This document shows, one piece after another, positions 7,525 to 60,074 of a DNA stretch of 64,000 nt. How positions within the stretch are numbered: position 1 is the stretch's first letter; every line of letters starts with the position of its first letter. Made by a program: the position numbers and the translations under genes. The stretch is from Candidatus Onthousia faecavium (lineage in GTDB: Bacteria > Bacillota_I > Bacilli_A > RF39 > UBA660): assembly GCA_018711135.1 (NCBI GenBank), contig DVIS01000019.1, positions 2,533 through 66,532 of the forward strand, given 5' to 3'. The notes beneath the pieces were generated by a model. That model was given only the letters and a program-made list of their open reading frames with translations, was not told where the DNA came from and made no database searches.

Positions 7525-7565
7525 AATAGCCCTCCATTCTATATTAATTATAACACTCTAAAATA

Positions 7566-12654: not shown

Positions 12655-14493
12655 TTAACTTAAAGTAAGACTAAACGGATTTTCTTTAGTTCCATCACCA
12701 CTTGTTATTGTAACATCTGCTAATAAATATAAGGCCGGTCTTACTATAGGGATTCCCCTAATTTGTCCTACAATATCTCGGTATGTATCTGTTGTTAAGC
12801 CATTCGTAGCAGCTCCTGCTACACGCATATATTCTCTTTGTTGATATTTAGTTAATAACCAGTAGACTTCACTAAGATCTCCTGAAAATTGTTCACCTAG
12901 TCTTAATAAACCAACTTTAGGTGTTCTTGCTTGTCTTAAAGAAATAGCATCAAGATAACTACCACCATCTGTTACAACGGTACTAATATCCCAGGTACCA
13001 TTTGCAATCATGGATATACTTTCAGCGCTTAAATAGCCACCAGCAGGATCTATATAATCACCGTTTAAAAATTGGGCAATCGTCGATGAAGAGGTATATG
13101 TATTATCATCACCAAACACACTCTCTAAAAGTTCCCCTGTATTGGCATCCCTTAAAACATCAGCACTAGCTATTTTAATCCTACCATCTGAAGCTATACT
13201 AACAATACGATAAAGATTATTTTCACCTAAACCAAAATTAATATATTCTCCACTATATCTTGTATTTAATAAGGTTCCTGAAAGTGCAGTATCATTATCG
13301 CCTGCTAAGCGGTAGGGATCGCTTTCGGTGCCACTTCCACCTACAATTTCTAAATCACCATAGAAATTTACTGCTGGCCATAAAGAGATAGAGTTTATTT
13401 GCGAATATGATACTAACTCTGATAAAGAATTAAATCCCCAAAGACTATTTCCACCATTGGTATTTAAAGTAGCAAAACTTTCGCCAGATAATGGAGTTAA
13501 AAAGGTATTACCAACGTCATCCTTTGTCATATTATATTCATAGATATTTAATAAACCTACTGCATGGGTTACCAAAGTTGTTTCGGGTAAAGTAGCTGAG
13601 GTATCGGTAACAGCACTAGCGTTCCAACTACTATCCATTTTAATAAATTTTTCTTTGTCTCTTAGATTACCAAGAAAGCCATCAGTCGTAATATCATTAA
13701 GCCATTCTTCTGCATGTGAACCAACAAAGCTTGTATTAGTATTAGTTCCATAAGGTATCTCTGTTATATCAGTAGCAGTTACAGCTTTCACAGTATTGTC
13801 ACTATTAATAGAAACGGCATGCCATAATTTACCACTATACCAAATATAATTGTTCGGAGCTTCTCCTGTTATAAATCTCTGGTCTTTATCACTTGTAGTG
13901 ATATTATTTGAACTATCTGCAAGGAGGACACTAGCTAAATCAGTAGCAGTTACTAATTCTTCAAATAAATAGCCATTACTTGGTAAGCTTAAGTCATTAT
14001 AATCAAGGCCTACATTAACTCCTAAAGATAGATCAAGTTCAGTTGCACCATTATTAATAATTCGGATTATATAAGTCTTACTTTCTCCTGGTGCTAAATT
14101 TACACCTGTAGCAGGTGGTGGTGTGTCGACACTTCCTTCATTATTTCCAACAATATAACCAACAGTTACGTTACTAGGAAATTCATCAAAGTGGTAAAAA
14201 TTAAATCTAGCATCTATACTATTGGGATTTGTTAAAGTAATTGTAATATCAACAGAACTATTTTGATTAGATAATGATATAACCGGTATCTGATTGACAT
14301 CATTATAAGTTTTCTCATCTATCTTTAGTTGATAACTTAAATTTCCTGTTACAATACTTATGGCATTATTCTTTTCTTTATTTACTGTAAAAAGTGCATA
14401 AGAAAAGTAACTCGCTAATAATAAGAAAACAATTAAAGTTGTTAATAAAACATATATTTTCGACACGTTTGTCTCTAATAACAATCTTTTCAT
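12655..14493 (-). CDS. P-family paralog, type B: SipW-type signal/TasA-like N-module plus two DUF6273-like C-terminal repeats
   Basis: The N-terminus MKRLLLETNVSKIYVLL..SYFSYALFTVNKEKNNAISIVTGNLSYQLKID is shared with five other ORFs here. The C-terminal motifs GLLNIYEY, YWLLT and VRPALYL..SGDGTKENPF are shared with 18272-19468 and 34543-36132. It lies 64 nt after the sigma gene and lacks the G9 leader. Confidence 0.7.
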   Translation of the reverse strand: MKRLLLETNVSKIYVLLTTLIVFLLLASYFSYALFTVNKEKNNAISIVTGNLSYQLKIDEKTYNDVNQIPVISLSNQNSSVDITITLTNPNSIDARFNFYHFDEFPSNVTVGYIVGNNEGSVDTPPPATGVNLAPGESKTYIIRIINNGATELDLSLGVNVGLDYNDLSLPSNGYLFEELVTATDLASVLLADSSNNITTSDKDQRFITGEAPNNYIWYSGKLWHAVSINSDNTVKAVTATDITEIPYGTNTNTSFVGSHAEEWLNDITTDGFLGNLRDKEKFIKMDSSWNASAVTDTSATLPETTLVTHAVGLLNIYEYNMTKDDVGNTFLTPLSGESFATLNTNGGNSLWGFNSLSELVSYSQINSISLWPAVNFYGDLEIVGGSGTESDPYRLAGDNDTALSGTLLNTRYSGEYINFGLGENNLYRIVSIASDGRIKIASADVLRDANTGELLESVFGDDNTYTSSSTIAQFLNGDYIDPAGGYLSAESISMIANGTWDISTVVTDGGSYLDAISLRQARTPKVGLLRLGEQFSGDLSEVYWLLTKYQQREYMRVAGAATNGLTTDTYRDIVGQIRGIPIVRPALYLLADVTITSGDGTKENPFSLTLS

Positions 14494-14557: not shown

Positions 14558-15202
14558 TTAAGCTACTTTTTCTTTAATTTTTTGTAATATTTTACTTTCC
14601 TTTCTACTTACTTGGACTTGACTAATACCAAGTAATTCAGCAGTTTCTTTTTGGGTTAGATCTTCATAGTATCTTGATGTTATAAGGCCTTTTTCACTTT
14701 CTTCTAAGGAATTAATAGCTGACTTTAAATCTAATATGCCAACATCATAGCCTTTTTCAATTAAAGCAATTTTATTGTATAAATTTGTATCATTATCCAT
14801 ATTATTATCATCAAGACTACAAGATGATTGACAAGCGATAATAGTACTTGTAATTTTTTCTTCACTAACGCCTAAAATATAACTTAATTCTAGTGGTGTT
14901 GGTTCTCTTCCTAATCGTTGGACTAAGTCTTCTCTAGTGTCATTAATTTCTTTATTTAATTTGTAAGTGTCATTACTTATTTTTACCTCTTTAGAATTAT
15001 TTAGGGTCTTTAGAACTTCTCCTTTAATATAAAAGTAAGCATAGTCTAAAAAGTTACTTTCTCTTGTTTGATCATACTTTTTAAAAGCTATAATTAGGCC
15101 CATCATACCGGCTTGGTATAAATCATCATAATCAGTTCTAAAGTTATACTTATTTACTACATGTCTTACTAAGTTTTCATATGCTAATACATCTTCTGTC
15201 AT
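14558..15202 (-). CDS. Sigma-70 family group-3 sigma factor, SigF/SigG/SigB-like
   Basis: Region 2 (DLYQAGMMGLIIAFKKYD), region 3 (KISNDTYKLNKEI..LGREPT) and region 4 (LTQKETAELLGISQVQVSRKESKILQKIK) align by eye with B. subtilis SigF. I chose the start at ATG 15202; the track start 15214 sits in the SD. Confidence 0.75.
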   Translation of the reverse strand: MTEDVLAYENLVRHVVNKYNFRTDYDDLYQAGMMGLIIAFKKYDQTRESNFLDYAYFYIKGEVLKTLNNSKEVKISNDTYKLNKEINDTREDLVQRLGREPTPLELSYILGVSEEKITSTIIACQSSCSLDDNNMDNDTNLYNKIALIEKGYDVGILDLKSAINSLEESEKGLITSRYYEDLTQKETAELLGISQVQVSRKESKILQKIKEKVA

Positions 15203-15286
15203 TTTAATCCCCATCCTTTAGGTTCATGATAATGGTTAACTTACGGAAAAACAATGGTTTCGACATAGTTAGAAAAATGTTTTAAC

Positions 15287-18271: not shown

Positions 18272-19468
18272 TTATTTTAAAATATAAGGACTACTAGCAC
18301 TACCATCACCTGATTTAATCATGGCGTTACTATTTAACATAACGGTTGGCCTTATTCTTTTCATATTAGAAGCATTAAATGATTCAATATAACCATAAGT
18401 TCTAACGGCATAAGCTTGATAAGTATTAGAATTATTAGAGGTTAAGAGCCACCATTCCGCATCTCTAAGACGTAAATAATTATAGTTTTGACAACTCCTA
18501 TCAGTAGTTTTTTTACAATTAGAGTCTAAGGATGCATTTATAAAATCACTAACTGTAAGTAAACCTATCATTTGATTATTTAAGACATCACTACATTCAG
18601 CACCATTAGTATTAATGCTTTCTTCCTCGCTTCTTTTTCCAATACATAAGTTAAAAGTAGTTAGTTTTTCTTTATCGTTATTACTTAATAAAGTATTACC
18701 ATTATATATTTCTTCTAACGAGCTTTTAATTCTACTAACTCGATAATCATTTATGCCACTGTTATAGTTTCGATCACTATTATATCTATCATCATAAGGA
18801 AGGCTTGAACTATCAAGGACATCGTCGGCAATTAATAAAATTTGATTATTAGCAATGATTTTAACAATTCTAAATAGAGCATTATCTAACTTAACATAAT
18901 TATTAACAGTCTCACCTCGGTAAACTTTTTCCCCATTTAAGTCATATAAACCATTTCCAGTAGTAACAAGACCTTGTTCTAAGACTGCCTTATATAATTC
19001 TTTAGTTACATAGTTATCGCCGCACTCTAAGTATGGTGTATAAATTATTTCACCATTTATTTTTGTAACCTCAACTCTACCAGTACAGTCTTCACCAGAT
19101 CTTAATTCACTTAAAGGGTCCATATAACCATTTTCAGCTAAGATGCTGGCATTTACAGTTACAACCTCTCCTTCTTCTTGGGGAAGCAAACCACTTTGAA
19201 CATCATAATACTCTTTAGCTGCATTTTCTAGTTCAGTTTCAATGGCTTCATAACTTTTATTCCGACCAGTAAAAAGACTTATAATTAAAATAACTATTAA
19301 GATGATAACTAAGACCCCAATTACAATTAGCATAATTCTCATTAGTTTCTTACGCATATCATTACTTTGATTATTAGTTGGTTGATCATTAGTTGTTTTA
19401 TTATTAGAAGCGTTAACTACCTCATCAACAATCTTTTTTCCCATATTTTCGTCCATAATTCTTATCAC
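18272..19468 (-). CDS. Membrane-anchored protein carrying only the type-B (DUF6273-like) C-module of the P-family
   Basis: It has one TM helix (LMRIMLIVIGVLVIILIVILIISLF). The motifs ALFRIVKII, IGLLTVSDF, EWWLLTS and IRPTVMLNSNAMIKSGDGSASSPY parallel the C-termini of 12655-14493 and 34543-36132. Confidence 0.6.
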   Translation of the reverse strand: MIRIMDENMGKKIVDEVVNASNNKTTNDQPTNNQSNDMRKKLMRIMLIVIGVLVIILIVILIISLFTGRNKSYEAIETELENAAKEYYDVQSGLLPQEEGEVVTVNASILAENGYMDPLSELRSGEDCTGRVEVTKINGEIIYTPYLECGDNYVTKELYKAVLEQGLVTTGNGLYDLNGEKVYRGETVNNYVKLDNALFRIVKIIANNQILLIADDVLDSSSLPYDDRYNSDRNYNSGINDYRVSRIKSSLEEIYNGNTLLSNNDKEKLTTFNLCIGKRSEEESINTNGAECSDVLNNQMIGLLTVSDFINASLDSNCKKTTDRSCQNYNYLRLRDAEWWLLTSNNSNTYQAYAVRTYGYIESFNASNMKRIRPTVMLNSNAMIKSGDGSASSPYILK

Positions 19469-34542: not shown

Positions 34543-36132
34543 TTACTGTACTGTGTATGGATTATCCATAGTTCCAGAACCACTTAAGATAACATCACTA
34601 TTTAAATTGATAACGGGCCTTATTCCATCTGAATTCAATTGGGTACTAAAAATGAAAATAATATGCAAGGCATCTAATTGATCCCAAATAGTAGGAACAT
34701 TATTACGGAAATCCGCAGGAGTCATGGTATAGTACCTGAAATTATCAACACTAAGATAACTATCACTTGTAACCTCCAAATTCTCTCCTGAAAAGATTAA
34801 CTCATCGACTGTTATTAAACCAGCTTTAAGTTTATAACTACCACCATAACTTTCATTAGTATTAGGGCATATTAAAGTTGGAGAAATGTCTTCACCCTTC
34901 CCATCAACAAGTTGATGAATTCTATCATAACTACTAAAGCCCATATAATCTCTATTTATACCATAGTCTTTAACAGCAGTATAACCACTACTATCACTAC
35001 AAAATCTTCCTTCTATTACTTTATCATCATAAGCATTATTTTTTCCTAAAGTATTGTTATACCAGGTATCGACTTCTTTTTTAATAAAACTATCTACACC
35101 ATTATCATAGGTATATCCTGTATATTTTGGATCATCATAGATTAAGTTATAAGGAGCAAATCCTATTATATATGAGGTAGCTAAGTCATTGTCATTAATA
35201 CTTGTATTTGTCCCATTATAAATTAATCTTAGGCTACCATCACCATTTACTCTTACTATTTTCAAGTACATATCATCCCCACTAGATGCTAACTTTATTT
35301 TATTACTTTCAGTACAATTAGAATTATATTCTTGACAACTCTCTAAACTTTGAAAATAACTATCATAATAATTATAGACATAATAATCTTCATCATATTT
35401 ACCAAATTTAATATTATTGTTGTCTATACTACCACGGAAATAATAACTTACTCCATCTTCATCGATGGCTTTGTATACTCCAGGTGTTATATAATTTGGA
35501 TCAACGGTATCTGCGCCAAATTTCATACCGTTACTTGCATAATTAAACATATTATCTTTTGATACTTGAACTTTATTATCCACTAATATCTTATCTAAAG
35601 TACTAGCATTATACTTTACAAATAAATGGCCATTACTAGGTAGATTTAAATCATTATAATCTAGTCCCACACCTACTCCTAAAGGAATAGTAATTTCATT
35701 GTCACTAGTATTTCTTACTTTTATCTTATAAGTATTGCTACTACTAATTGTCCCTTGTTTTTCTAGATTAATTCCTGGTTCTTCTGGAGGAGTATTAAAA
35801 TTAGCTTCTTCAAGGTAACCAAGTTCAATCTCAGAAGATAAATCACCTATATAATAAAAGTTAAATCTTGCTATTCTACTATTAGGATTAGATAATGTAA
35901 TAATAAATTCTTTAATACTATTGGCAGGAACTACAAGACTTTCAGTACTAACATTATCTACTTTTAAGTCATAACTTAGTGTTCCTGTGACAATACTTAT
36001 GGCATTACTCTTTTCTTTTGTTACTGTAAACATTGCATAAGAAAAGTAACTTGTTAATAGTAGCAAAGTTATTAATATTACACTTATTATATATATTTTT
36101 GATATCTTAGTATTCAATAATATTCTTTTCAT
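34543..36132 (-). CDS. P-family paralog, type B: TasA-like N-module plus a DUF6273-like C-module
   Basis: The N-terminal 170 aa are nearly identical to 50248-52023 (MKRILLNTKISKIYIISVILITLLLLTSYFSYAMFTVTKEK.NAISIVTGTLSYDLKVD). The C-terminus (LKIVRVNGDGSLRLIY, AGLITVDEL, IRPVINLNSDVILSGSGTMDNPY) resembles 12655-14493 and 18272-19468. Confidence 0.75.
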   Translation of the reverse strand: MKRILLNTKISKIYIISVILITLLLLTSYFSYAMFTVTKEKSNAISIVTGTLSYDLKVDNVSTESLVVPANSIKEFIITLSNPNSRIARFNFYYIGDLSSEIELGYLEEANFNTPPEEPGINLEKQGTISSSNTYKIKVRNTSDNEITIPLGVGVGLDYNDLNLPSNGHLFVKYNASTLDKILVDNKVQVSKDNMFNYASNGMKFGADTVDPNYITPGVYKAIDEDGVSYYFRGSIDNNNIKFGKYDEDYYVYNYYDSYFQSLESCQEYNSNCTESNKIKLASSGDDMYLKIVRVNGDGSLRLIYNGTNTSINDNDLATSYIIGFAPYNLIYDDPKYTGYTYDNGVDSFIKKEVDTWYNNTLGKNNAYDDKVIEGRFCSDSSGYTAVKDYGINRDYMGFSSYDRIHQLVDGKGEDISPTLICPNTNESYGGSYKLKAGLITVDELIFSGENLEVTSDSYLSVDNFRYYTMTPADFRNNVPTIWDQLDALHIIFIFSTQLNSDGIRPVINLNSDVILSGSGTMDNPYTVQ

Positions 36133-36354
36133 CTTCTACTCCTTATCAATTATCTTGACATTAATTATAGTTTACCCTATTTCTTTAATTTTATGTGCTG
36201 GCTATATAACCAATTTACACCATGAAAAAGAACAGAATACTCCTATCCTGTCCTTATTGTATGATTAAAGAAGGTACTTAAGCTTCTAAAGTACCCCCCC
36301 CCAGGTAACTTGTTGTAAACCGGATGTTCTTGTCATTTCATACCTTCTTTCTAT
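36133..36354 (-). promoter_or_regulatory. P-family 5' leader, copy 1 (core 36225-36354 with G9 at 36294-36302, plus accessory module 36133-36224)
   Basis: The conserved block is shared with four other loci. It has a terminator-like hairpin AAGGACAGGATAGGAGTATTCTGTTCTT followed by T5. The accessory module carries a near-palindrome CTGGCTATATAACCAA and a TATAAT box. Confidence 0.7.
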
Positions 36355-36368
36355 TTTTTATTAACTTA

Positions 36369-36397
36369 ATAGTAACATAATTAATGAATTATTACAA
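36369..36397 (-). promoter_or_regulatory. Sigma-A-type promoter feeding leader copy 1
   Basis: Minus strand TTGTAA (36392-36397), 17 nt ending in TGt, then TACTAT (36369-36374), about 15 nt upstream of the leader core. Confidence 0.45.
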
Positions 36398-36402
36398 TAG
36401 AT

Positions 36403-38172
36403 TTAATTACCGGCATTTAATACAAGACGAAAAGAACCATTATAACGACCTGAACTTATATAATTGTAATAATGAAAAATTCCAGCATCAGTTTTGTCAC
36501 CATAATAACCACCTCTAATAATCCAAGGGTATGCTGAATTGACCATTGTCCATGAATCGTTATACCAATTGTTAGTTTCACTTAAAGCATGGGATAAACA
36601 AATTTTACCAGAACATGCGGTATTAGTATTGTCGCTTGTATATTGATCATAATATTTAGAGTCTATTATAATATTTTCCATACCAATTCCGTTATAATTT
36701 GCCATTATAAATTCCCAGGCTCCACCTGACATATCATAGATTCCATAAATATTTCCAGTTGTTGAAGAGCCAGTACCATTAATATCTATATCATAAGTAT
36801 AATGACAACCATAATCAGTATTACCATTGCTTGGTTCTCCATAACTGCATCCAGTTATATATTGATCACTTTTATTTTGATAAATCTCTTTATTAGCATT
36901 ACTAAAATCGGTATTACCTAGTTTTCCATATCGACTTTGGGATAAGTAGGCTACTGTTGCCCATTCACTATTCTTCATCATATGTGTATCTACACTACTA
37001 CTAAATCCATATCTATTTCCTGCATCATTCATTTTTATTGATACATTAAAAGCATTACTTATACTTATATTTCTCCAACTTATCACATTAGGTTTAATTA
37101 TTGGATCTAAAGTAGTTGTATCTCCTCCTCCATATTCTGCATCAGGATTACTACTACTTGTTTCAAATTTTCCTACCCAGATTCCTGATAGTTCTTCATC
37201 ACCAAAAGTAAAAGCATCTGGGGTATACCAACTATTACTATTCATTCCTTCATTTATATTATATCTAGCAGTTCCCTTTTCTTTGACATTTACTCTAACA
37301 AATTTTATATCTATCTCTCCTGGTAAAGCTTGAGTTGGAGAATTACTCTCACATGCTACTTGTCTACCATAGTAATTTGTTCCATCAATACTTGCTATAG
37401 AATAACTATATCGTGGTATCCATACCCACATAGTCTCTATATCATCCATATTTATTACAGTTCCTACACTAGCACTCTTATAGCTCTCTCTTGTACTACT
37501 GCTGACAGTTACGGCATTGGCCCATTTCTGTTCACTATAGTTATACCAATCATTATCAGTGTTATTTGTATTGGCTTTTACCCAATTGTTATCTACATAT
37601 TTCACAGCTATCATATTAGTATCTAATTCTGGAGTATTTACATTTTGGCCATATTCTAAAAATAAATGTTCATCATTTTCTAAACTTAAATCATTATAAT
37701 CTAGCCCTACACTTACTCCTAAAGTTATTGTCTGTTCCTTATTGCTATCATTATATACTATAATTTTATAAGTTTCACTTGATCCTATTGTTCCTGTTGC
37801 TTCTAAATTTATTCCAGTTGCTTCTGGTGGTTTAATACTTTCACAATCTATAATATAACCAGCTTCTATACTTTGATCTAAATTACCTTTATAATATAAG
37901 TTAAATCTAGCAATTCTATTATTAGGATTAGATAAAGAAACAAGAAATATTTTTTCTTCTTTTGGACCAACTACTAATTTATCTGTACTTACTCCATCTA
38001 CTTTTAAGTCATAACTTAGTGTTCCTGTGACAATACTTATCGCATTACTCTTTTCCTTACTAACAGTAAACATCGCATAAGAAAAGTAGCTTGTTAATAG
38101 CAGTAAAGTAATCAATATTACGCTTATCATATATATTTTTGATATTTTAGTATTTAATAATATTCTCTTCAT
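36403..38172 (-). CDS. P-family paralog, type A: TasA-like N-module plus an FGE-sulfatase/C-type-lectin-like C-module
   Basis: The C-module motifs GIWVGKFETSSS, ISWRNISISNAF, MKNSEWATVAYLSQSRYGK, YGIYDMSGGAWEF, RGGYY and SFRLVL parallel the SUMF1/FGE-sulfatase domain (GxYDMxGNVWEW, RGGSW, GFR). Confidence 0.75.
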   Translation of the reverse strand: MKRILLNTKISKIYMISVILITLLLLTSYFSYAMFTVSKEKSNAISIVTGTLSYDLKVDGVSTDKLVVGPKEEKIFLVSLSNPNNRIARFNLYYKGNLDQSIEAGYIIDCESIKPPEATGINLEATGTIGSSETYKIIVYNDSNKEQTITLGVSVGLDYNDLSLENDEHLFLEYGQNVNTPELDTNMIAVKYVDNNWVKANTNNTDNDWYNYSEQKWANAVTVSSSTRESYKSASVGTVINMDDIETMWVWIPRYSYSIASIDGTNYYGRQVACESNSPTQALPGEIDIKFVRVNVKEKGTARYNINEGMNSNSWYTPDAFTFGDEELSGIWVGKFETSSSNPDAEYGGGDTTTLDPIIKPNVISWRNISISNAFNVSIKMNDAGNRYGFSSSVDTHMMKNSEWATVAYLSQSRYGKLGNTDFSNANKEIYQNKSDQYITGCSYGEPSNGNTDYGCHYTYDIDINGTGSSTTGNIYGIYDMSGGAWEFIMANYNGIGMENIIIDSKYYDQYTSDNTNTACSGKICLSHALSETNNWYNDSWTMVNSAYPWIIRGGYYGDKTDAGIFHYYNYISSGRYNGSFRLVLNAGN

Positions 38173-38328
38173 CTCTTACTCCCTTCATTCAACCACAAAA
38201 AAAGAACAGAATACTCCTATCCTGTCCTTATTATATGATCAAAGAAGGTACTTAAGCTTCTAAAGTACCCCCCCCCAGGTAACTTGTTGTAAACGGATGG
38301 CTGTTCTCATTTTATACCTTCTTTCTAT
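38173..38328 (-). promoter_or_regulatory. P-family 5' leader, copy 2 (core 38197-38328, G9 at 38268-38276)
   Basis: Same conserved block. The terminator-like hairpin is followed by T7, 12 nt before the SD AAGGGAG. Confidence 0.7.
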
Positions 38329-38343
38329 TTTTTATCTGTTTAT

Positions 38344-42155: not shown

Positions 42156-43124
42156 TTAGACTTTTTTCTGTTCGAAGATCCAGTACATAGCAGCGGTTGG
42201 ATGAATCTCTTTATACATATCAAAAGCTCTATTGTTATAGTCTTTAGTAATAGCATTGTATTGATTTGGATCTTGAACTAATATTTTACCATCTTTAGTA
42301 ATGCCACTTAAAACAATAATATGGCCGCTTCTTGTAAATAGGCCTGGTCTTTGGGAGCACATAACTGGTTGTCCGGCTTTTAAAGCAGAGATAACAAGTT
42401 CTGGATTAGTAGTGGAAACAACCTCCCCTAATCCATAGTAATCAGCTAAAGCTTTGGGAAAAGCCCAAGACATGCCAGCGCCATTAACATAGTAAGGTTG
42501 ACCCATTTCATTGACAACTTGATCAGGAGTAATGCTTTTTCCAGTTAAATAGGAAGCAACCATAGCACCTGAGGTGAATCCACAGCCTCCTAAAGCAATA
42601 GTAGAATTACCCAGTTTTACAGTTGGATAATCGCCTTGATAATAAATAGGCATACCTGACAAGACGTTAGCGGCAGTATTAACAACAACTTGAGTTGCAG
42701 CTTTAAAATCTTCTACTGCTTCAAAATCAGACATGAGATCATGGAAAGAGCTACTATTATAAGTTGGAAAAGGAGTATTTCTGATAACCTCATCAGTGGC
42801 TAAGGCTTCTTGCCAACACGCTCCTACATTGTATAGAGTTGTATTTTCTTTAGAAACAAGAGTAAAAAAATTGGTAACAAGATTTACAACAGAAGGAAGG
42901 AAGAAAATAATAAGAGCTGCTAGAAACTTAGTCAAAATACTCTTTAGGCCATTTTTTTTGTCTGGATTAAGCATATTAGATATTAAAGCTAAAGTTAAGG
43001 CCACAATCAATATTATAGGTACAACGATGCAAACTATAGAAAAAATACGTTCTAGAGTAGCTAATGTACCAGCTAAAGCATAATCAGAGCAAACACTTTC
43101 TAAAATATAAAACATATATATCAT
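42156..43124 (-). CDS. Polytopic membrane protein with a C-terminal papain-like (C39-like/CHAP-like) cysteine peptidase domain
   Basis: 3 N-terminal TM helices, a candidate catalytic Cys in LGGCGFTSGAMVASYL and a candidate His in SGHIIVLSGI. Confidence 0.6.
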   Translation of the reverse strand: MIYMFYILESVCSDYALAGTLATLERIFSIVCIVVPIILIVALTLALISNMLNPDKKNGLKSILTKFLAALIIFFLPSVVNLVTNFFTLVSKENTTLYNVGACWQEALATDEVIRNTPFPTYNSSSFHDLMSDFEAVEDFKAATQVVVNTAANVLSGMPIYYQGDYPTVKLGNSTIALGGCGFTSGAMVASYLTGKSITPDQVVNEMGQPYYVNGAGMSWAFPKALADYYGLGEVVSTTNPELVISALKAGQPVMCSQRPGLFTRSGHIIVLSGITKDGKILVQDPNQYNAITKDYNNRAFDMYKEIHPTAAMYWIFEQKKV

Positions 43125-43277: not shown

Positions 43278-45071
43278 TTATGGAGCAATAACTATCCTAG
43301 AAGCACGATCGTGATGGGTATCATCTGTACCTTTATCAGTTGAATACCAAAAGATACCAGGAGTTAATGGTTCGATTGAGCCATCAGGATAATAATAATT
43401 ACTACCACAAATTATCCATGGTATATCAGAATTAACAGTAGCATAAAAATCATTATACCAATGAGCTATTTCTGATAAGTAATATGATTTACACAAACCT
43501 CCATTACAGGCAGTAACAGTATCATCACTAGTATATTTATCATAATATTTGGCATCAGGCATTGAAGAAAAACCACTATTAATGGTAATATCATTATAAT
43601 TTCCCATCATAAATTCATGAGAACATCCTACCATATCATAGATTCCATAAATATTGCCAGTTGTTGAAGCACCTGTTCCATTTATATTTATATCATAAGT
43701 ATATTGACAGCCAAAGTCATATCCGGTACCACCACCAGGAGCCCCCCAACTGCATCCTGTTATATATTGATCACTCTTGTTTTGATATACCTCTTTATTA
43801 GCTCCACTATAATTAGTATTACCAATTTTACCGTATTTAGATTGGGTTAAATAAGTAACAGCTCCCCACTCACTACTTTTCATAGCATGGGTATCTACAT
43901 TACTACTAAATCCATATCTATTTCCTTCATCATTCATTTTAAGACTAATATTAAAAATATTAGCAATACTATTACCACGCCAACTTACAACATTAGGTTT
44001 AATCATAGGATCTAATTCTGTTGTATTGCCTCCTCCATGTTCTAAAGATGGATCACTACTACTTGTCTCAAACTTTCCTACCCAGATTCCGCTTAACTCT
44101 TCATCACCAAAGGTAAAAGCATCTGGAGTATACCAGCTTGTTATTTCTTCTCCTACTTTATATTTAGCACTACATCTATCTTTTTCTCCACTAGCCACAA
44201 ATTTAACATCTATTTCTCCTGGTAATTCTTGAGTTGGAGTTGTTGTTAAAAAATTCCCTTGTTTTCCATAGTAATTAGTTCCATCTTTACTACCGATTGT
44301 ATACGAGTATCTCGGTATCCATACCCACATGGTTTCAATATCATTCATATTTATTATGGTTCCTACACTTGCATTTTTATAACTTTCTCTTGTTGAGCTA
44401 CTTACTGTTACCGCATTAGCCCATTTTTGTTCATTATAGTTATACCAATCATTATTAGCATTACTTATATCTGCTTTTACCCAATTATTGTTTTCATATT
44501 TTACGGCAATCATATTAGTATCTAACTCTGGAGCATTTGGTTCATTTATATATTCTTTAAATAAATGGCCATTACTTGGTAGGCTTAAATCATTATAATC
44601 TAGACCTACACTTACTCCTAACTCTATTACTACCTCATTATGAGAATTATTTTCGACCATTATTTTATATTTATTACTACTACCTATACTTTTACTTGTT
44701 TCTAGATTAACTCCTATTTCTTCTGGTAAAGGATTTGTTTCACAATCTGTGATATAACCAACAGTTACATTATCTGGGATTTCATTTAAGTAGTAAAAGT
44801 TAAATCTTGCTATTCTATTGTTTGGATTACTTAAAGTAACTATAAACTCTATTGAGGTCTCACCAGGAATAGTTAAAGTATTTCCTTCTTTTCTATCTAT
44901 TTCTAATTTATAGTCCAGTGTTCCTGTAACAATACTAATAGCATTATTCTTTTCGTTGGTTACAGTAAACATCGCATAAGAAAAGTAACTTGTTAATAGT
45001 AATAAGGTTATTATAATTACACTTATTATATATATTTTTGATACTTTAGTATTTAATAATAGTCTTTTCAT
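43278..45071 (-). CDS. P-family paralog, type A (597 aa)
   Basis: Same N-module, with FGE-like motifs (GIWVGKFETSSS, MKSSEWGAVTYLTQSKYGK, YGIYDMVGCSHEF). The extreme C-terminus is divergent. Confidence 0.75.
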   Translation of the reverse strand: MKRLLLNTKVSKIYIISVIIITLLLLTSYFSYAMFTVTNEKNNAISIVTGTLDYKLEIDRKEGNTLTIPGETSIEFIVTLSNPNNRIARFNFYYLNEIPDNVTVGYITDCETNPLPEEIGVNLETSKSIGSSNKYKIMVENNSHNEVVIELGVSVGLDYNDLSLPSNGHLFKEYINEPNAPELDTNMIAVKYENNNWVKADISNANNDWYNYNEQKWANAVTVSSSTRESYKNASVGTIINMNDIETMWVWIPRYSYTIGSKDGTNYYGKQGNFLTTTPTQELPGEIDVKFVASGEKDRCSAKYKVGEEITSWYTPDAFTFGDEELSGIWVGKFETSSSDPSLEHGGGNTTELDPMIKPNVVSWRGNSIANIFNISLKMNDEGNRYGFSSNVDTHAMKSSEWGAVTYLTQSKYGKIGNTNYSGANKEVYQNKSDQYITGCSWGAPGGGTGYDFGCQYTYDININGTGASTTGNIYGIYDMVGCSHEFMMGNYNDITINSGFSSMPDAKYYDKYTSDDTVTACNGGLCKSYYLSEIAHWYNDFYATVNSDIPWIICGSNYYYPDGSIEPLTPGIFWYSTDKGTDDTHHDRASRIVIAP

Positions 45072-45228
45072 CTTTTTCTCCTTTCATTTAACCATAAAAA
45101 AGAACAGAATCCTTCTATCCTGTTCTTATTCCATGATTAAAGAAAGTACTTAAGCTTCTAAAGTACCCCCCCCCAGGTAACTATTTGTAAACGGATGCTA
45201 GCTTGCATTTTTCATACCTTCTTTCTAT
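45072..45228 (-). promoter_or_regulatory. P-family 5' leader, copy 3 (core 45096-45228, G9 at 45166-45174)
   Basis: Same conserved block. The hairpin AAGAACAGGATAGAAGGATTCTGTTCTT is followed by T6. Confidence 0.7.
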
Positions 45229-49228: not shown

Positions 49229-49519
49229 TTATTTATTAAATAAATCACTATGACTACCAGTTTCTACTAAATATAAAATTAATATATCTTCATCATATTT
49301 ATAAACTAACAACCAATCCGATTCAATATGACATTCCCTACAATTACTATAATATTTATTATCAATAAGAGCATGATCTCTATACTTAGAATCCAACTCT
49401 TTTTTCTTCGATAACATATCAACTACATTTAAAAGCTTATCAATATTTTTTCCCTGTTTAGTAATTTTTTTTAGTTGTTTTTTAAAACTTTTAGTAAACT
49501 TAATTTGGTAACTAATCAT
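49229..49519 (-). CDS. yafQ: Type II toxin, YafQ/RelE-family mRNA interferase
   Basis: 96 aa with KYRDHAL..NCRECHIESDWLLVYKYD..LILYLVETGSHSDLF, the characteristic YafQ pattern. It overlaps the antitoxin stop by 8 nt. Confidence 0.8.
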   Translation of the reverse strand: MISYQIKFTKSFKKQLKKITKQGKNIDKLLNVVDMLSKKKELDSKYRDHALIDNKYYSNCRECHIESDWLLVYKYDEDILILYLVETGSHSDLFNK

Positions 49520-49799
49520 CTGACTCCAAAGCCTTTTTTAAATCTGCGATACTGTTATAAGCTTTATATTCAGTTGGATGTTTTTCCATATAATCAAGTT
49601 CATTAAGTGCCGCTATAAATTCTCTACTTGGTCTAGGCTCTTTAACCTCGAATGGTATTCCTCTTTCATAAATTGCTCTTTTTAAGAACATATTTATAGC
49701 AACACTCATATTTAAGCCTAAATTATTAAAAATAGCATTAGCTTCCTCTTTAACTTCTGTAGGAACATTTACATTAATAGCACTAGTTAAATTAGACAT
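49512..49799 (-). CDS. dinJ: Type II antitoxin, DinJ/RelB family
   Basis: MSNLTSAINVNVPTEVKEEANAIFNNLGLNMSVAINMFLKRAIYERGIPFEV is a ribbon-helix-helix DinJ pattern. The start is reassigned to ATG 49799 (GGGAG SD). Confidence 0.75.
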   Translation of the reverse strand: MSNLTSAINVNVPTEVKEEANAIFNNLGLNMSVAINMFLKRAIYERGIPFEVKEPRPSREFIAALNELDYMEKHPTEYKAYNSIADLKKALESDD

Positions 49800-50247: not shown

Positions 50248-52023
50248 TTATTCTATACAAAGAATAGTTCTAAATGAGTTATCTATACGCACGCCACCTA
50301 AACTATATGTAGCACCATAAGAAAACAGACCAGAATCAACTTGATCATAGTAGTATCCACCTCTTACTAACCAGGGATACTCATTATTTATCATATTATT
50401 AATATCTTTATACCATTCTGAAGTTTCTGATAAGGCATGGCTTAAACATTCTTCTCCATTGCATGCTGTTAATATGTTATCTGTTATATATTTATCATAA
50501 TACTTTGACTCGGGAAAAATGGTAAAATCAGCATTACCTAATATATCATTATAATTACCCATAACATATTCCCAGGCTCCTCCACTCATATCATATATTC
50601 CATATATAGTTCCAGTTGTACTTGCTCCTGTACCATTTATATCTATGTCATATGTGTATTGACATCCATAATCGGTATTGCTATTTGATGGCATTCCATA
50701 ACTACACCCAGTTATATACTCTTCACTTTTATTTTGATATATTTCTTTATTAGCATTACTAAAATTTGCATTACCTAACTTTCCATATTTACTTTGGGAT
50801 AGATATGTTACAGCTCCCCACTCACTGTTTTTCATCATATGGGTGTCGATAGTACTACTAAATCCATATCTATTTCCTTCATCATTCATCTTTAAACTTA
50901 CATTAAAGGCATTACTAACATTTATATATCTCCAACTTGTTACGTTTGGTTTTATCATCGGATCTAACTCTGTTGTATTCCCTCCTCCATATTCTAATGA
51001 AGGATTAGAACTACTTGTCTCAAACTTGCCTACCCAGATTCCACTTAGTTCCTTATCTCCGAATGTAAAGGCATCTGGGGTATAATACTCTTTTGCTCCA
51101 GTTGTCGTTATGCATTTTGCATTTCCCCTATCTTTTATTTTATCACTTACAAATCTTATATCTATTTCTCCTGGTAATTCTTTAGTTGGTTCACTTTCTA
51201 AATAACAGCCTTGCTTTCCATAATAATTAGTTCCATCAACGCTTGCAATACTATAACTATATTTTGGTATCCATACCCACATTGTTTCAATATCATTCAT
51301 ATTTACTATGGTTCCTACAGAAGCATTTTTATAATTTTCTCTTGTTGAACTACTTACTGTTACCGCATTAGCCCATTTTTGCTCATTATAGTTATACCAA
51401 TCATTATTAGTGTTACTTGTATCAGCTTTAACCCAGTTGTTATCTACATATTTTATAGCTATCATATTAGTATCTAACTCTGGTGCATTTGGTTCATTTA
51501 CATATTCTTTAAATAAATGTCCATTACTTGGCAAACTTAAATCATTATAATCTAGTCCTACTTGTACCCCTAATTCTATCACTATTTCATTACTAGAATT
51601 ATTTTCTACCATTATTTTATATTTATTACTACTACCTATACTTTTACTTGCTTCTAAGTTTACTCCAGTTTCTTCTGGTAAATTAGTAGTTTCACAATCT
51701 TTTATATAACCAACATTTACCTCTGTTGGTATTTCATTTAAGTAATAAAAATTAAACCTAGCTATTCGATTATTGGGATTTGTTAATGTAATAATAAATT
51801 CTTCAGCACTATTGGCTTTAACAACGAGGTTTTGACTAGAATTGCCATCTACTTTTAAATCATAACTTAATGTTCCTGTTACTATACTTATGGCATTCCT
51901 CTTTTCTTTTGTTACTGTAAACATCGCATAAGAAAAGTAACTTGTTAATAGCAGTAAAGTAATTAATATTACACTTATTATATATATTTTTGATATCTTA
52001 GTATTCAATAATATTTTCTTCAT
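50248..52023 (-). CDS. P-family paralog, type A (591 aa)
   Basis: Same N-module, with FGE-like motifs (GIWVGKFETSSS, MKNSEWGAVTYLSQSKYGK, YGIYDMSGGAWEYVMGNY, RGGYYY, SFRTIL). Confidence 0.75.
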   Translation of the reverse strand: MKKILLNTKISKIYIISVILITLLLLTSYFSYAMFTVTKEKRNAISIVTGTLSYDLKVDGNSSQNLVVKANSAEEFIITLTNPNNRIARFNFYYLNEIPTEVNVGYIKDCETTNLPEETGVNLEASKSIGSSNKYKIMVENNSSNEIVIELGVQVGLDYNDLSLPSNGHLFKEYVNEPNAPELDTNMIAIKYVDNNWVKADTSNTNNDWYNYNEQKWANAVTVSSSTRENYKNASVGTIVNMNDIETMWVWIPKYSYSIASVDGTNYYGKQGCYLESEPTKELPGEIDIRFVSDKIKDRGNAKCITTTGAKEYYTPDAFTFGDKELSGIWVGKFETSSSNPSLEYGGGNTTELDPMIKPNVTSWRYINVSNAFNVSLKMNDEGNRYGFSSTIDTHMMKNSEWGAVTYLSQSKYGKLGNANFSNANKEIYQNKSEEYITGCSYGMPSNSNTDYGCQYTYDIDINGTGASTTGTIYGIYDMSGGAWEYVMGNYNDILGNADFTIFPESKYYDKYITDNILTACNGEECLSHALSETSEWYKDINNMINNEYPWLVRGGYYYDQVDSGLFSYGATYSLGGVRIDNSFRTILCIE

Positions 52024-52179
52024 ATCTTACTCCTTTCATTTAATCATAGAATAAGAACAGAATACACTTATCCTGTCCTTATTCTATGATTAAAGAAAGT
52101 ACTTAAGCTTCTAAAGTACCCCCCCCCAGGTAACTTGTTGTAAACGGGTGGCTGCTCCCATTTTATACCTTCTTTCTAC
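52024..52179 (-). promoter_or_regulatory. P-family 5' leader, copy 4 (core 52045-52179, G9 at 52119-52127)
   Basis: Same conserved block. The U tract after the hairpin is interrupted (CTTATTCTATG). The 5' end of the block (TAGAAAGAAGG) contains the TAG stop of the upstream gene. Confidence 0.7.
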
Positions 52180-55824: not shown

Positions 55825-57597
55825 TTATATAATTAAAGTAAGGCGGAAAGAAGCATCTTTATTTACTGAACCATTACCCGTAGTTTTATAAAAATGAAAT
55901 ATACCTGATGAACTATCTGAATTATAGTAGCTACCATAAGCAACCCAGGGATTATTAACATCGCTCATAACAGCTGAGTCACGATACCATCCTGCAGTTT
56001 CTGATAAACCATATGATAAACATTCTTTACCATTACAAGCAGTAAAAATGTCACTACTTGTATATTTATCATAGTATTTAATATCAGGCATTTCTGTAAA
56101 TCCAGAACTAGCAATTATATCATTATAGTTACCCATCACATATTCCCAAGCTCCTCCACTCATATCATAGATTCCATAAATATTTCCCGTTGTTGAGGCT
56201 CCTGTCCCATTTATATCAATATCATATGTATATTGGCAGCCATAATCAGTATTTCCTTTAGATGGTGCTCCATAACTACATCCTGTTATAATCAAATTGG
56301 ATTTATTTTGGTATATTTCCTTATCTTTTCCTGTGAAATCAACATTTCCTAATTTTCCATATCGACTTTGGGATAGATATGCTACTGCTCCCCATTCACT
56401 ATTCTTCATCATATGTGTATCGATAGTACTACTAAATCCATATCTATTTCCTTCATCATTCATTTTCAAACTGACATTAAAGCCATTACTTATATTTATA
56501 TTTCTCCAACTCGTGACATTTGGTTTTATCATTGTATCTAATTCTGTTGTATTACCTCCTCCATATTCTGCATCAGGATTAGAACTACTTGTTTCAAACT
56601 TTCCAACCCAGATTTCACTTAACTCTTCATCACCAAAGGTAAAAGCGTCTGGAGTATAATACTCTCTTACTCCTGTTGTTGTTACATATTTAGCATTTCC
56701 TCTATCTTTTATTTCTGTACTAACAAATCTTACATCTATTTCTCCTGGTAGTTCTTGAGTTGGTTCACTTTCTAAATAACAACCTTTTCGTCCATAATAA
56801 TTAGTTCCATCTTCACTTGCAATACTATAACTATATCTTGGTATCCATACCCACATAGTTTCTATATCATTCATATTTATTATGGTTCCTACACTTGCAT
56901 TTTTATAACTTTCTCTTGTACTACTACTGACAGTTACAGCATTAGCCCATTTCTGTTCACTATAATCATACCAATCATTATTAGTATTGCTTGTATCTGC
57001 TTTTACCCAATTATTATTTTCTTATTTTACTGCTATCATATTAGTATCTAATTCTGGAGTATTTGGTTCATTTATATATTCTTTAAATAAATGTCCATTA
57101 CTTGGTAAACTTAAATCATTATAATCTAGTCCTACCCCTACTCCTAACTCTATTACTACCTCATTATGAGAATTATTTTCGGCCATTATTTTATATTTAT
57201 TACTACTACCTATACTTTTACTTGTTTCTAGATTAACTCCTATTTCTTCTGGTAACGGATTAGTTTCACAATCTGTGATGTAACCCACAGTTACATTATC
57301 GGGGATTTCATTTAAGTAGTAAAAGTTAAATCTTGTTAAACGATTATTAGGATTTGTTAGAGTAACTATAAACTCTATTGAGGTCTCACCAGGAATAGTT
57401 AAAGTATTTCCTTCTTTTCCATCTATTTCTAATTTATAATCCAGTGTTCCTGTCACAATACTAATCGCATTATTCTTTTCTTTGGTTACAGTAAACATCG
57501 CATAGGAATAATAACTTGCTAATAGTAATATAGTTATTAAAATTACACTTATTATATATATTTTTGATACTTTAGTATTTAATAATATCCGCTTCAT
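55825..57597 (-). pseudogene. P-family paralog, type A, inactivated by a single in-frame TAA (Tyr codon in the paralogs)
   Basis: The two track ORFs (57022-57597 and 55825-56874) are in the same frame (1773 nt in total). Reading through gives ..NMIAVK*ENNNWVKADTSNTNNDWYDY.., where paralogs have ..NMIAVKYENNNWVKAD.. Confidence 0.8.
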
Positions 57598-57818
57598 TTT
57601 TACTCCTTATCAGTTATTTTGACATTAATTATAGTTTACCCTAATTTATTTATTTTATGTGCTGGTTATATAACCAGTTTGCATACTAAAAAAGAACAGA
57701 ATCCTTCTATCCTGTTCTTATTCCACGATTAAAGAAAGTACTTAAGCTTCTAAAGTACCCCCCCCCAGGTAACTTCTTGTAAACGGGTGCTAGTGCTCAT
57801 TTCATACCTTCTTTCTAT
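57598..57818 (-). promoter_or_regulatory. P-family 5' leader, copy 5 (core 57688-57818 with G9 at 57758-57766, plus accessory module 57598-57687)
   Basis: The core matches copy 3 in the terminator hairpin. The accessory module matches copy 1 and contains a perfect 16-nt palindrome, CTGGTTATATAACCAG (57662-57677). Confidence 0.7.
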
Positions 57819-57897: not shown

Positions 57898-59023
57898 ATT
57901 CACTTTTACTTAATTTAACTTTTGTAGTATGTTCTTCTCCTGCTCTTAAATAAGTAAGTTCAATTGTATCTCCGGCTTGATACTTATATAGTTCATATCT
58001 TAAGTAAGCAGAATCAGATACCTCTACACCGTTAATAGCAGTTACAATATCACCTGCTTTTAAATCGGAAGAAGCAGCGCCTGTTCCTTCTTCAATACCA
58101 GCGATAACAACTCCACTGTCAACATCGTTTGGAATATCAAAGTTGTAACGATATGAATATTTAGCATCAGAAACATTTAACATTTGAACTCCTAAAACTG
58201 GCCATTCAATTGATTCACCTTTTTCTAGAGTTTCAATCTTACTATTTACATATTCAATTGGAATAGCAAAGCCCATACCTTCAACCTCTGTTTGAACTAA
58301 TTTTAAAGAGATAACCCCAATAACCTCACCATTAGCATTCATTAAAGGACCACCACTATTACCTGGATTAATAGCAGCATCTGTTTGTAAAACTTTCATA
58401 ACCCAATCACTACTTGAAGAGTTATTATCAGTACTAACACTAACAAGACGATCTTTACCAGCTAAGTGACCTGTTGAAACACTACCACGGTATTCATAAC
58501 CTAGAGGGTTACCTATAGTAAAGACTAAATCACCTAGTTTAGAGTTTTCACTATTACCAAGGGTTAAAGCAACTAAGTCATCAGTCTTTTTCATTCTAAC
58601 AATAGCGATATCAACATAAGAGTCTCCTCCAAGAACCTCACCTTCAATTTCTTCATCAGTTGAGGTTATTAAAGTAATTCTGTCAGCTCCATCAACAACG
58701 TGTTGATTAGTGATAACATAAGCATCATCACCTTCTATTTTATAAACAAAACCAGTACCAGTTGATGCAACCTCATCATTTTGATAGTTTCTAATCATTA
58801 AAATACCATCATAAACTTTTTCTACCGCTTCACTTATACCTGATTCATCAACAACCACTTTAGTACAATCTGCTGCACTACAAGTTAGACCAGAGGAAGC
58901 TGATGAGGTAGTAGTCGTTTTATTCAATAGATCTTTACCATCAATAACTATAAAGGTTAAAACACCTCCAATGACAAAAGATACAATTATTAATATTGCC
59001 TCTTTAATTCTTTCACTTTTCAT
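57896..59023 (-). CDS. htrA: HtrA/DegP-family serine protease (trypsin-like S1C plus PDZ)
   Basis: A TM anchor, the catalytic motifs TNQHVV, DIAIV and GNSGGPLMN, and a C-terminal PDZ (LKAGDIVTAINGV). Confidence 0.85.
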   Translation of the reverse strand: MKSERIKEAILIIVSFVIGGVLTFIVIDGKDLLNKTTTTSSASSGLTCSAADCTKVVVDESGISEAVEKVYDGILMIRNYQNDEVASTGTGFVYKIEGDDAYVITNQHVVDGADRITLITSTDEEIEGEVLGGDSYVDIAIVRMKKTDDLVALTLGNSENSKLGDLVFTIGNPLGYEYRGSVSTGHLAGKDRLVSVSTDNNSSSSDWVMKVLQTDAAINPGNSGGPLMNANGEVIGVISLKLVQTEVEGMGFAIPIEYVNSKIETLEKGESIEWPVLGVQMLNVSDAKYSYRYNFDIPNDVDSGVVIAGIEEGTGAASSDLKAGDIVTAINGVEVSDSAYLRYELYKYQAGDTIELTYLRAGEEHTTKVKLSKSE

Positions 59024-59969: not shown

Positions 59970-60074
59970 TTATACCACCTAGATTAGATTATAGCATAAA
60001 AAGTGTGTAAAAAATATGAATTTTTCATGAAAAATTATGTTATACTTTAGTAGTTGATAGAAAGGGTTGATAGG

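Follow-up and report, generated by a model that had tools for sequence, protein, structure and literature searches.

What does a short leader do when it is repeated, almost unchanged, in front of one paralog after another? The question is raised by 64,000 nucleotides of the genome of Candidatus Onthousia faecavium (contig DVIS01000019.1 of assembly GCA_018711135.1, positions 2,533 to 66,532; we call this whole stretch the window), in which six paralogous open reading frames (ORFs), all on the minus strand, begin with the same N-terminal module (the N-module) and continue into one of two kinds of C-terminal module, or head (types A and B). We refer to these genes as m1 to m6. A ~130-nt element, ~90% conserved between paralogs, lies upstream of m2–m6 but not of m1, and within it a run of nine Gs is embedded in a short upstream ORF (uORF). 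In our judgment there is about an even chance that the six genes encode a lineage-expanded, exported family of surface ligand-binding proteins, five of which would be expressed from behind a stochastic poly-G leader switch.

A G tract inside a conserved upstream reading frame

The first-pass annotation of the window, made from the letters alone, had remarked that the adjacent genes m2 and m3 share a leader; this leader is real, and it is more structured than had been noted. In order, it consists of a Shine-Dalgarno (SD) sequence (SD1, AGAAAGAAGG), a 16-codon uORF, a hairpin bearing stop codons, a C/U-rich box (UAC(C/U)UUCUUU, the putative anti-SD), a hairpin followed by a U-run, and a second SD sequence (SD2) with the main start codon. 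The uORF product reads M....RLQxVTWGGVL*, its coding sequence containing UGG GGG GGG G, and the hairpin with the U-run was called as a terminator by an independent terminator scan. In the leader of m3 (38173–38330, minus strand), which has the SD1 given above, the uORF occupies 38260–38310 (product MRTAIRLQQVTWGGVL*) and its G9 tract 38268–38276; the 3′ part comprises the hairpin with two early stops, the anti-SD box ACCUUCUUUGAUCAU, the terminator hairpin (38202–38229), and SD2 (GAAGGGAG). The remaining four leaders, also on the minus strand, are those of m2 (36225–36353, with the uORF at 36286–36336, G9 at 36294–36302, and a terminator), m4 (45096–45227; uORF 45158–45208, G9 45166–45174), m5 (52047–52178; uORF 52111–52161, G9 52119–52127, with the U-run of the terminator broken, UUCUUAUUC), and m6 (57688–57817; uORF 57750–57800, G9 57758–57766).

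The five G9 tracts, each of them inside the uORF, are the only runs of seven or more Gs or Cs in the 64 kb, where 0.006 such runs were expected; the GC content of the window is 29%. In other genomes (~20 species), the leader was found before ~50 of 66 family genes, and 89 of 91 leader copies, counted over the window and the fetched loci, preceded a gene encoding the N-module, the other two lying at a contig end and before a gene with the sister module N2 that is described below. The leader matched no Rfam family (a chance-level match to the L20 leader, E 0.14, was all that was returned), and a scan of the whole window against Rfam at the gathering score yielded one tRNA and no other family. 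A diverged form of the leader, in which the tract is G11 and the uORF is framed differently (..KLPGGGGI*), lies at L094:3800–4003 (metagenome-assembled genome [MAG] GCA_944332125.1) ahead of the gene for P0087, a 49%-identical relative. Because this diverged copy precedes so distant a relative, the leader element is older than the L007–L086 clade.

Among 54 leaders compared, every one had a start codon 6–10 nt past SD1, from which the frame was free of stops and in register with GUU ACC UGG, and this register was kept across six length classes of the 5′ part of the uORF (7, 8, 9, 12, 22, and 30 codons). Because the frame was conserved in 54 of 54 leaders despite the varying 5′ length, the sequences argue strongly that the uORF is translated. 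The G tract itself varied in length from 5 to 13 over the same 54 leaders (G9 in 28, G10 in 11, with a few tracts interrupted), and it differed in four of six pairs of leaders that were otherwise near-identical (at most four flank differences). One of 22 tracts from the species of the window was G10, and a scan of metagenomes for further leaders of this species returned two contigs only, one with G9 and one with G6.

The consequence of this variation for the reading frame was regular. In 53 of the 54 leaders, two of the three frames stop early and exactly one is open into the terminator hairpin; it is invariably a tract of 3n+2 Gs that leads into this open frame. Measured from the core of the anti-SD box, the stops of the three frames fall at median positions of −17, −6, and +26 nt. 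The run-through frame was the one present in three or four of the 54 leaders (two scripts differed on one leader), compared with ~18 at random; when redundant copies were counted, it was present in 6 of ~60 leaders, with at most two such leaders in any sampled genome. Such rarity of the run-through frame is what a variable family that is mostly OFF would show.

RNAalifold on MAFFT alignments of the leaders returned only a helix between SD1 and the anti-SD box and nothing in the 3′ half, the alignments being structurally inconsistent; leader structure was assessed by folding each sequence separately and by comparing cognate with non-cognate stem flanks. In 50 of 56 minimum-free-energy (MFE) folds the anti-SD box paired with SD2, within a long stem that carries the terminator at its tip. 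The MFE of the m3 leader, whose fold includes the anti-SD:SD2 stem, was −41.7 kcal/mol (z −2.8). The flanks of the stem vary by subfamily in a compensating manner (GAUCAU/AUGGUU versus CAUUAU/AUAAUG versus CAUAAUGC/GCAUUAU), and cognate flanks paired at −2.41 kcal/mol as opposed to −1.29 kcal/mol for non-cognate flanks, a difference reached in 0 of 10,000 permutations, which ignore the relatedness of the sequences.

A candidate frame-dependent switch and its rivals

The leader, as we read it, most likely works as a stochastic switch. The boldest form of this reading, which we place somewhat short of an even chance, is a phase-variation switch of a kind not described before, in which a poly-G tract in a translated leader peptide would select among three frames before dozens of lectin-headed paralogs, such that each cell would display a random subset of heads. 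Translation of the 16-codon uORF holding G9 would start from the strong SD1. When the tract is G9 or G10, the ribosome would meet one of the two stops just upstream of the anti-SD box and be released. In this OFF state, the anti-SD box would pair with SD2 in the long stem tipped by the terminator and transcription would stop, and any RNA that was read through would be untranslatable, with its SD2 masked. When the tract has 3n+2 Gs (G8 or G11), the uORF would be open across the anti-SD strand and would end inside the terminator hairpin, and the translating ribosome would prevent both the terminator and the SD-masking stem, leaving SD2 exposed (the ON state). Gain or loss of a single G, through slipped-strand mispairing at replication or through slippage of RNA polymerase (replacing DNA slippage or adding to it), would toggle each paralog independently, and heads would then appear in changing combinations across the population. 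What the sequences show is the architecture of proteins and leader, the conserved uORF frame, the placing of the stops by frame, the stem that conceals SD2, and the differences in tract length from copy to copy; surface location, ligand binding, the identity of the ON frame, and heritable switching we infer.

Several observations weigh against this proposal. Of the tracts assembled from the same species, 21 of 22 were G9. Errors in the assembly of homopolymers, above all in nanopore data, could lie behind some of the differences in tract length from one MAG to another. The pattern of one open frame occurred in ~41% of shuffled sequences and draws its weight only from its recurrence across related length variants, and the assignment of frames to ON and OFF is suggested by the geometry of the leader alone. 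The helix between SD1 and the anti-SD box was kept in 42 of 42 sequences, but without covariation or compensatory changes. On the protein side, a full-length AlphaFold2 (AF2) model of m3 built with 35 homologs reached a predicted local distance difference test (pLDDT) score of only 43, and the fold suggested for the type A head comes from matches below cutoff. Finally, the peptide LQxVTWGG is conserved, which could instead be the sign of a mechanism based on the nascent peptide or on codon sensing.

This last point leads to the rival that survives best, in which the leader would respond to physiology as conventional leader-peptide attenuators do, with no heritable switching. A ribosome slowed or stalled at the rare codons UGG-GGG-GGG or on the nascent peptide LQxVTWGG would decide, by its position, between the terminator and SD-masking stem and an open form. 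Such an attenuator would share with our proposal the translated uORF attested by the frame conservation in 54 of 54 leaders, and a terminator together with an SD-sequestering stem is the usual equipment of attenuators; moreover, the conserved peptide lies just 5′ of the tract, GGG is expected to be rare at 29% GC, and G9 is nearly fixed in the species. What it fits poorly is the tract. At 5–13 Gs the tract shifts the frame between copies, which differ both in how many Gly codons they have and in the C-terminus of their peptide. The synonymous codons GGA and GGU are never used, which implies that the homopolymer itself is kept, interrupted tracts exist as rare variants, and the layout of stops by frame would have no role. 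On balance we consider a conventional attenuator unlikely.

A frame-independent action of the G tract at the level of RNA, either as the target of a C/U-rich small RNA (sRNA) or by pairing with the anti-SD box, with tract length tuning expression gradually, seems to us quite improbable. Targeting of G-repeats in 5′-UTRs by an sRNA is a known mechanism (RepG and tlpB in Helicobacter, as cited in PMC12721329), and the leader's own CUUUCUUUC could pair with the G-run through G-C and G-U pairs. In the MFE folds, however, the partner of the anti-SD box is SD2 and not the G tract, and an action on RNA alone would explain neither why an in-frame uORF is conserved nor why each frame has its own stop. 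No candidate sRNA was seen, though none was looked for.

The frame-dependent switch that we propose would borrow from systems that are individually well known. It resembles the simple-sequence-repeat (SSR) contingency loci (poly-G in Campylobacter, opa, pilC, and lgt in Neisseria, and vlp in Mycoplasma) in that a homopolymer that defies base composition accompanies one gene after another in a multigene family of surface proteins, with a length that varies from copy to copy and would matter modulo 3, and in that most copies are in one state. It differs from them in that the repeat resides in a translated uORF of its own, outside both the promoter and the structural gene, and in that the frame is proposed to act through the site at which the ribosome stops relative to a terminator and SD-masking stem, not through truncation of the protein. 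With leader-peptide attenuators (pyrBI, ermC/cat, and the trp type) the leader has in common a short leader ORF with its own SD sequence, a downstream terminator and/or SD-masking stem, and, on our proposal, an output decided by the position of the ribosome on the leader, whereas the position is set there by a metabolite, an antibiotic, or tRNA supply and would be set here in the genome itself, through frame shifts in a hypermutable tract. The tlpB/RepG pair of Helicobacter pylori likewise involves a variable G homopolymer in a 5′ leader acting after transcription initiation, but there the homopolymer is an sRNA binding site in untranslated RNA, and here it lies within a translated uORF with frame-dependent stops.

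The leader thus joins two known principles, SSR phase variation and leader-peptide attenuation, in a combination that we did not find described in our literature searches; full-text searches gave no description of a poly-G uORF switch arrangement. If the leader works as we propose, the frame of a leader peptide would be what couples an SSR to expression, a new wiring of a repeat into gene control, and the switch would be repeated before dozens of surface paralogs in a clade of uncultured, spore-forming gut Bacilli with small genomes. Leaders of this type are easily searched for in other genomes and easily tested with reporters.

Three of the leaders in the window have local peculiarities. Those of m2 and m6 share an insert of ~65 nt between the terminator and SD2 (within 36133–36224 and 57598–57687, respectively), which, besides a TATAAT box, includes a small hairpin (UGGUUAUAUAGCCA), and in the MFE fold SD2 is not paired with the anti-SD box; the insert may supply a second promoter, by which the switch would be bypassed. 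In the 3′ half of the m5 leader (52047–52110), the stem is extended to a near-perfect hairpin of ~28 bp (−38 kcal/mol) that buries SD2, and m5 may be controlled by translation only and not by termination.

The N-module and the comparison with TasA

The N-module that the first-pass annotation had recognized in all six paralogs proved to be present in each of them, as a segment of ~175 amino acids that begins MKR(I/L)LLNTK..SYFSYAMFTV.KEK.NAISIVTGTL and ends LGV.VGLDYNDLSLPSNGHLF. A positively charged N-terminus is followed by a hydrophobic helix of ~23 residues ending in a near-invariant S-x-A|x-F, and the helix is followed by an ultra-conserved segment of ~20 residues (MFTVTKEKSNAISIVTGTL). 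Four positions, S31, A33, F35, and G50, were conserved in at least 90% of 96 diverse members, a pattern that fits an A-x-A-type cleavage site with a functionally important segment behind it. An AF2 model of the m2 N-module, built on a 24-sequence alignment, had a pLDDT of 85 and contained a helix (residues 12–49) and an eight-strand beta-sandwich (residues 55–157), with low confidence for residues 31–50. The top Foldseek matches of the model were generic immunoglobulin (Ig)-like sandwiches (GOLD, a chitin-binding domain, PapD-like, FimG, and BslA), and the weak Pfam matches found in the 96 diverse members were all to families with Ig- or fibronectin type III (Fn3)-like folds, namely fn3_5 (20 members), FixG_C (12), and WxLIP_PGBD (9). 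As modeled, the N-module is a signal or anchor helix joined to an Ig/Fn3-like sandwich, and the sandwich would act as a stalk for the head.

The first ~57 codons of the N-module are nearly identical between paralogs. In codons 1–57, the nonsynonymous divergence (dN) between paralogs was 0.015–0.099 and the synonymous divergence (dS) 0.29–0.77, with dS as in the rest of the module, whereas dN in codons 58–172 was 0.03–0.47; dN of the first 57 codons was thus typically ~5–20-fold below that of the rest, the exception being the recent pair m4/m6. Because dS equals that of the rest of the module while dN is far lower, recent gene conversion was ruled out as the source of the near-identity, which on the sequences at hand is the mark of purifying selection on the protein. 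The sandwich, by comparison, evolves fast, with dN/dS of ~0.4–0.7 in most pairs and 0.13–0.23 for m4/m5, m4/m6, and m5/m6.

The N-module had been described in the first-pass annotation as TasA-like and its N-terminus as a SipW-dependent signal peptide, and neither description found support. Six tests, with Pfam, NCBIfam, Foldseek, two profile searches of the PDB, and an hhalign comparison to a TasA/CalY profile built for the purpose, led us to reject TasA homology of the window module. None of the five intact paralogs in the window matched PF12389 (Peptidase_M73) at E ≤ 1, and no match to TIGR04088 was found in NCBIfam at E ≤ 1, the resemblance to SipW-dependent signals being one seen by eye only. 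Searches with two N-module profiles matched no solved structure in a PDB library that included the TasA entries 8AUR and 5OF1, and a Foldseek search of the PDB with the pLDDT-85 model gave no match at E ≤ 1e-3, with TasA absent from the top 50. When the window-type module (N1) was aligned by hhalign to the 20-sequence TasA/CalY profile, the probability was 0.13% (P 0.43). The earlier statement that no sipW is present in the window was confirmed, and no ORF of the SipW, SipS, or S26 type was found either in the window or in 650 kb around ~80 family loci.

A sister variant of the module, N2 (..TYAYFST..VKVGELEL..), is carried by relatives that share with the window genes both the type A head and the leader. 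In Pfam, N2 was co-linear with camelysin/TasA at scores below the cutoff of PF12389 (E 0.0099–0.12; 12.7–16.2 bits against 22.5), and hhalign gave a probability of 34.6% (P 4e-4 over 43 columns) for N2 against the TasA/CalY profile and of 53% (P 1.3e-4) for N1 against N2. The poly-G leader also stands before an N2-type gene, at L080:4831–5010 (protein MKKKENIVIIV..VSYAAFSFSKQG..ITTGSITM). A very remote link of the N-module to TasA/camelysin, running through N2, is possible judging from these alignments; the window proteins themselves are no demonstrable members of the TasA/camelysin family.

The alternative that the N-module is nonetheless of the TasA/camelysin type, exported in a SipW-dependent manner, cleaved at SYA|MF, and assembled by donor-strand exchange into fibers that carry lectin heads, strikes us as improbable. 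It could draw on the likeness of its motif to that of TasA/CalY (A|xF(T/S)...(I/F)..G(T/N)L, with comparable spacing), on the co-linear but sub-cutoff Peptidase_M73 matches and the hhalign score of N2, and on the N1–N2 alignment, as well as on the segment behind the putative cleavage site, which is the most constrained in the protein yet was modeled at pLDDT 37–54, as are segments that fold only in complex. Against it stand the missing PF12389 and TIGR04088 matches, the negligible hhalign probability of N1, and the failure of the PDB profile searches to find 8AUR or 5OF1. The Foldseek matches were to generic Ig-like folds only, the eight-strand sandwich has no strand obviously absent, the ~80 loci have no SipW- or SipS-like ORF nearby, and the weak Pfam matches of the 96 diverse members are to fn3_5, FixG_C, and WxLIP_PGBD, not to M73. 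The general likeness to TasA/CalY (Peptidase_M73) is an N-terminal signal ending in A|xF(S/T), a G-T-L ~15 residues further on, a beta-sandwich, and a spore-forming Bacillota host; the differences are that the window module has no match by hidden Markov model, profile–profile, or fold comparison, that its domain is about half the size, that it has no sipW neighbor, and that a large C-terminal head is attached.

As an Ig/Fn3-like stalk, the N-module is widespread. Queries with it returned 120 unnamed metagenome proteins, as well as 153 loci in ~20 species-level genomes, with many copies per genome that are often in tandem, and a profile search of 1.84 billion representatives gave 664 clusters (50% identity) at E ≤ 1e-3, in proteins of 150–870 amino acids in which the module was always N-terminal. 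Pfam scans of 96 N-module proteins (counts at E ≤ 0.001, with a second figure, where given, at E ≤ 0.5) identified C-termini made of BspA-type leucine-rich repeats (LRRs; 9), DUF6273 (7–12), ALK/LTK glycine-rich (6), DUF285 (6), Flg_new_2 (4), Laminin_G_3 (3), and FGE-sulfatase (1–3) domains, and ricin, cadherin-like, and dockerin domains were also found. The first-pass description of a modular cassette family, with a common N-terminal export and stalk module and swappable heads, therefore extends from the window to the 664 clusters, and by these sequence comparisons it applies more widely than a reader of the window could see. No Pfam family exists for the module that heads these clusters, the database sources give the proteins no name, and our literature searches returned no description of the family, in keeping with the first-pass impression that it was not a described one. 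We regard the proteins as a family that is new and unnamed but belongs to a generally known kind, that of exported proteins in which an Ig-like stalk bears a C-type-lectin-like head. In uncultured gut Bacilli, a group that lacks known surface biology, the N-module seems to serve as an all-purpose stalk bearing adhesin-type domains.

The heads and a retroelement-bearing relative

The type A head (~415 amino acids) is carried by m3, m4, m5, and m6. It had been proposed to be FGE-sulfatase-like, and this pointed in the right direction, since 15 of 35 relatives matched PF03781 in the same region, although every match was below cutoff (m3 at E 0.0097, with 16 bits against a cutoff of 23.3; the best E among the 35 was 1.9e-4). 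The only PDB sequence match of type A was to 5VF4 (E 4.9e-4), a variable protein of a diversity-generating retroelement (DGR) from Thermus aquaticus with a C-type-lectin fold; a PDB profile search with the 35-homolog alignment matched nothing. More than 7,500 relatives of the head were found in databases, none of them named or covered by a Pfam family. Its reported motifs were found in m3, m5, and m6 and are degenerate in m4 (MVGCSHEF, ICGSNYY, and ASRIVIAP). Relative to its paralogs, m4 has MSGGAWE changed to MVGCSHE, RGGYY to CGSNYY, and SFRL to ASRIV, in an ORF that is still intact.

For type B, the earlier assignment as DUF6273-like was likewise in the right direction: a seventh gene, c7 (18272–19468, minus strand), matched PF19789 above the Pfam cutoff (26.3 bits against 23.5, E 7.7e-6), but m1 and m2 had no PF19789 match at E ≤ 1. 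The head of m1 consists of two tandem DUF6273-like repeats, each of which aligned to the c7 domain (BLASTP E 5e-5 and 8e-4), and that of m2 matched type B solely through its C-terminal ~30 residues (E 6e-4). The heads of m1, m2, and c7 fell into one single-linkage cluster with 53 relatives, and the 80 fetched loci had the same two classes of head as the window, with 53 heads of type B and 8 of type A. The membrane-anchored c7 shares with the family only this head, as first reported, its N-terminal membrane helix being unrelated to the N-module. Against PHROGs, the heads of m1–m3 matched no phage family, and c7 alone had matches, to phrog_9958 (an unknown-function family; E 4.3e-5) and, with less strength (E 0.0048), to a Hoc-like family.

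DUF6273 resembles the C-type-lectin fold and is a target of DGRs in gut phages (PMC10743442). The claim that the two heads are unrelated thus did not hold: both are probably C-type-lectin-fold domains, the evidence for type A and for m2 being below cutoff, and as far as sequence comparison goes both are best read as diversifiable ligand-binding domains. That the type A module is instead an enzyme of the FGE/SUMF1/EgtB class acting on a secreted or cell-wall substrate is very improbable, for its weak PF03781 matches over the region with YGIYDMSGGAWE and RGGYY all lie below the Pfam cutoff and span only profile positions ~141–226 of 255, the one PDB protein that it matches, a DGR variable protein, is no enzyme, its place on the stalk can be taken by LRR, lectin, and DUF6273 modules, and m4 is intact although its conserved motifs are gone.

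One distant relative is itself part of a DGR. In P0118 (L093:4001–7937; JGI 3300056808, contig Ga0558721_00389), a gene encoding the N-module and DUF6273, called in four pieces, is followed by small ORFs and by an RVT_1 reverse transcriptase gene (6996–7937). A repeat of ~99 nt occurs three times at this locus, at 5038–5136 and 5701–5799 (both coding, the two variable repeats, VRs) and at 5952–6050 (the non-coding template repeat, TR), and a base-by-base comparison of one coding copy, VR2, with TR placed the differences at TR adenines, the signature of a DGR. This relative has no copy of the poly-G leader. A DGR was considered for the window as well and rejected, since it contains neither a reverse transcriptase gene nor any template-like repeat matching the 3′ ends of the heads. 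The family thus resembles the DGR variable proteins (Mtd, TvpA, TaqVP [5VF4], and the tentaclins/DUF6273) in having FGE-like and DUF6273 heads, probably of the C-type-lectin class, that would serve as diversifiable binding sites, and one relative with the same N-module is a true target, its locus combining the two VRs and the TR with a reverse transcriptase; the family differs in that diversity in the window comes from the number of paralogs, the swapping of head types, and the leader, with no reverse transcriptase or template repeat. One architecture would then be varied by three routes, namely paralogy with head swapping, the poly-G leader, and a DGR in a relative, which point to strong fluctuating selection, by host, phage, or immune system, on the ligands of the heads.

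Family members in the window and their surroundings

All six paralogs stood at the positions first reported. The gene m1 (12655–14493) encodes 612 amino acids, the N-module and the two tandem repeats described above, and lacks the G-tract leader; m2 (34543–36132; 529 amino acids) joins the N-module (35605–36132) to a divergent type B head (34546–35604); and m3 (36403–38172; 589 amino acids) has its N-module in residues 1–175 (37648–38172) and its type A head at 36406–37647. The N-module is joined to the degenerate type A head in m4 (43278–45071; 597 amino acids) and to a type A head in m5 (50248–52023; 591 amino acids), and m6 (55825–57597) is a type A paralog that had been taken for a pseudogene, correctly so, having a single in-frame TAA at codon 192 that was identical in other samples. 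In one metagenome strain, a 71-bp deletion in m2 (L002:11980–12070 compared with 36120–36200 of the window) takes out SD2 and the first five codons, and m2 is called there from Met34. Because of this deletion and the stop codon of m6, we conclude that inactivation of individual paralogs is ongoing.

A gene for a SigF/SigG-like sporulation sigma factor (14558–15214), itself preceded by spoVAC-spoVAD-spoVAEB, ends 64 nt before the start of m1, and m1 may be co-transcribed with the sigma factor gene or regulated by sporulation. Sporulation genes of the window comprise spoVAC/AD/AEB, CotZ-like genes, and this sigma factor gene, and the surroundings of the family are otherwise those of an ordinary chromosome (ileS, a Mur ligase gene, pyruvate:ferredoxin oxidoreductase, gyrB/gyrA, rlmN, and a PASTA kinase gene). 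The genes of the window recur identically on metagenome contigs in ENA and NCBI, and the relatives come from MAGs labeled "uncultured Bacilli/Tenericutes", from Candidatus Onthousia, and from the complete 1.5-Mb MAG OZ006970.1. The direct downstream neighbor of m4 encodes a protein of 322 amino acids with Peptidase_C39_2/C70 matches (42156–43124), a RelB/ParE-type toxin–antitoxin pair lies at ~49229–49799 between ileS and m5, and further along the window are an Abi_2 gene (59013–59969) and, on the plus strand, a gene for a Zn-dependent phospholipase C (60054–61052).

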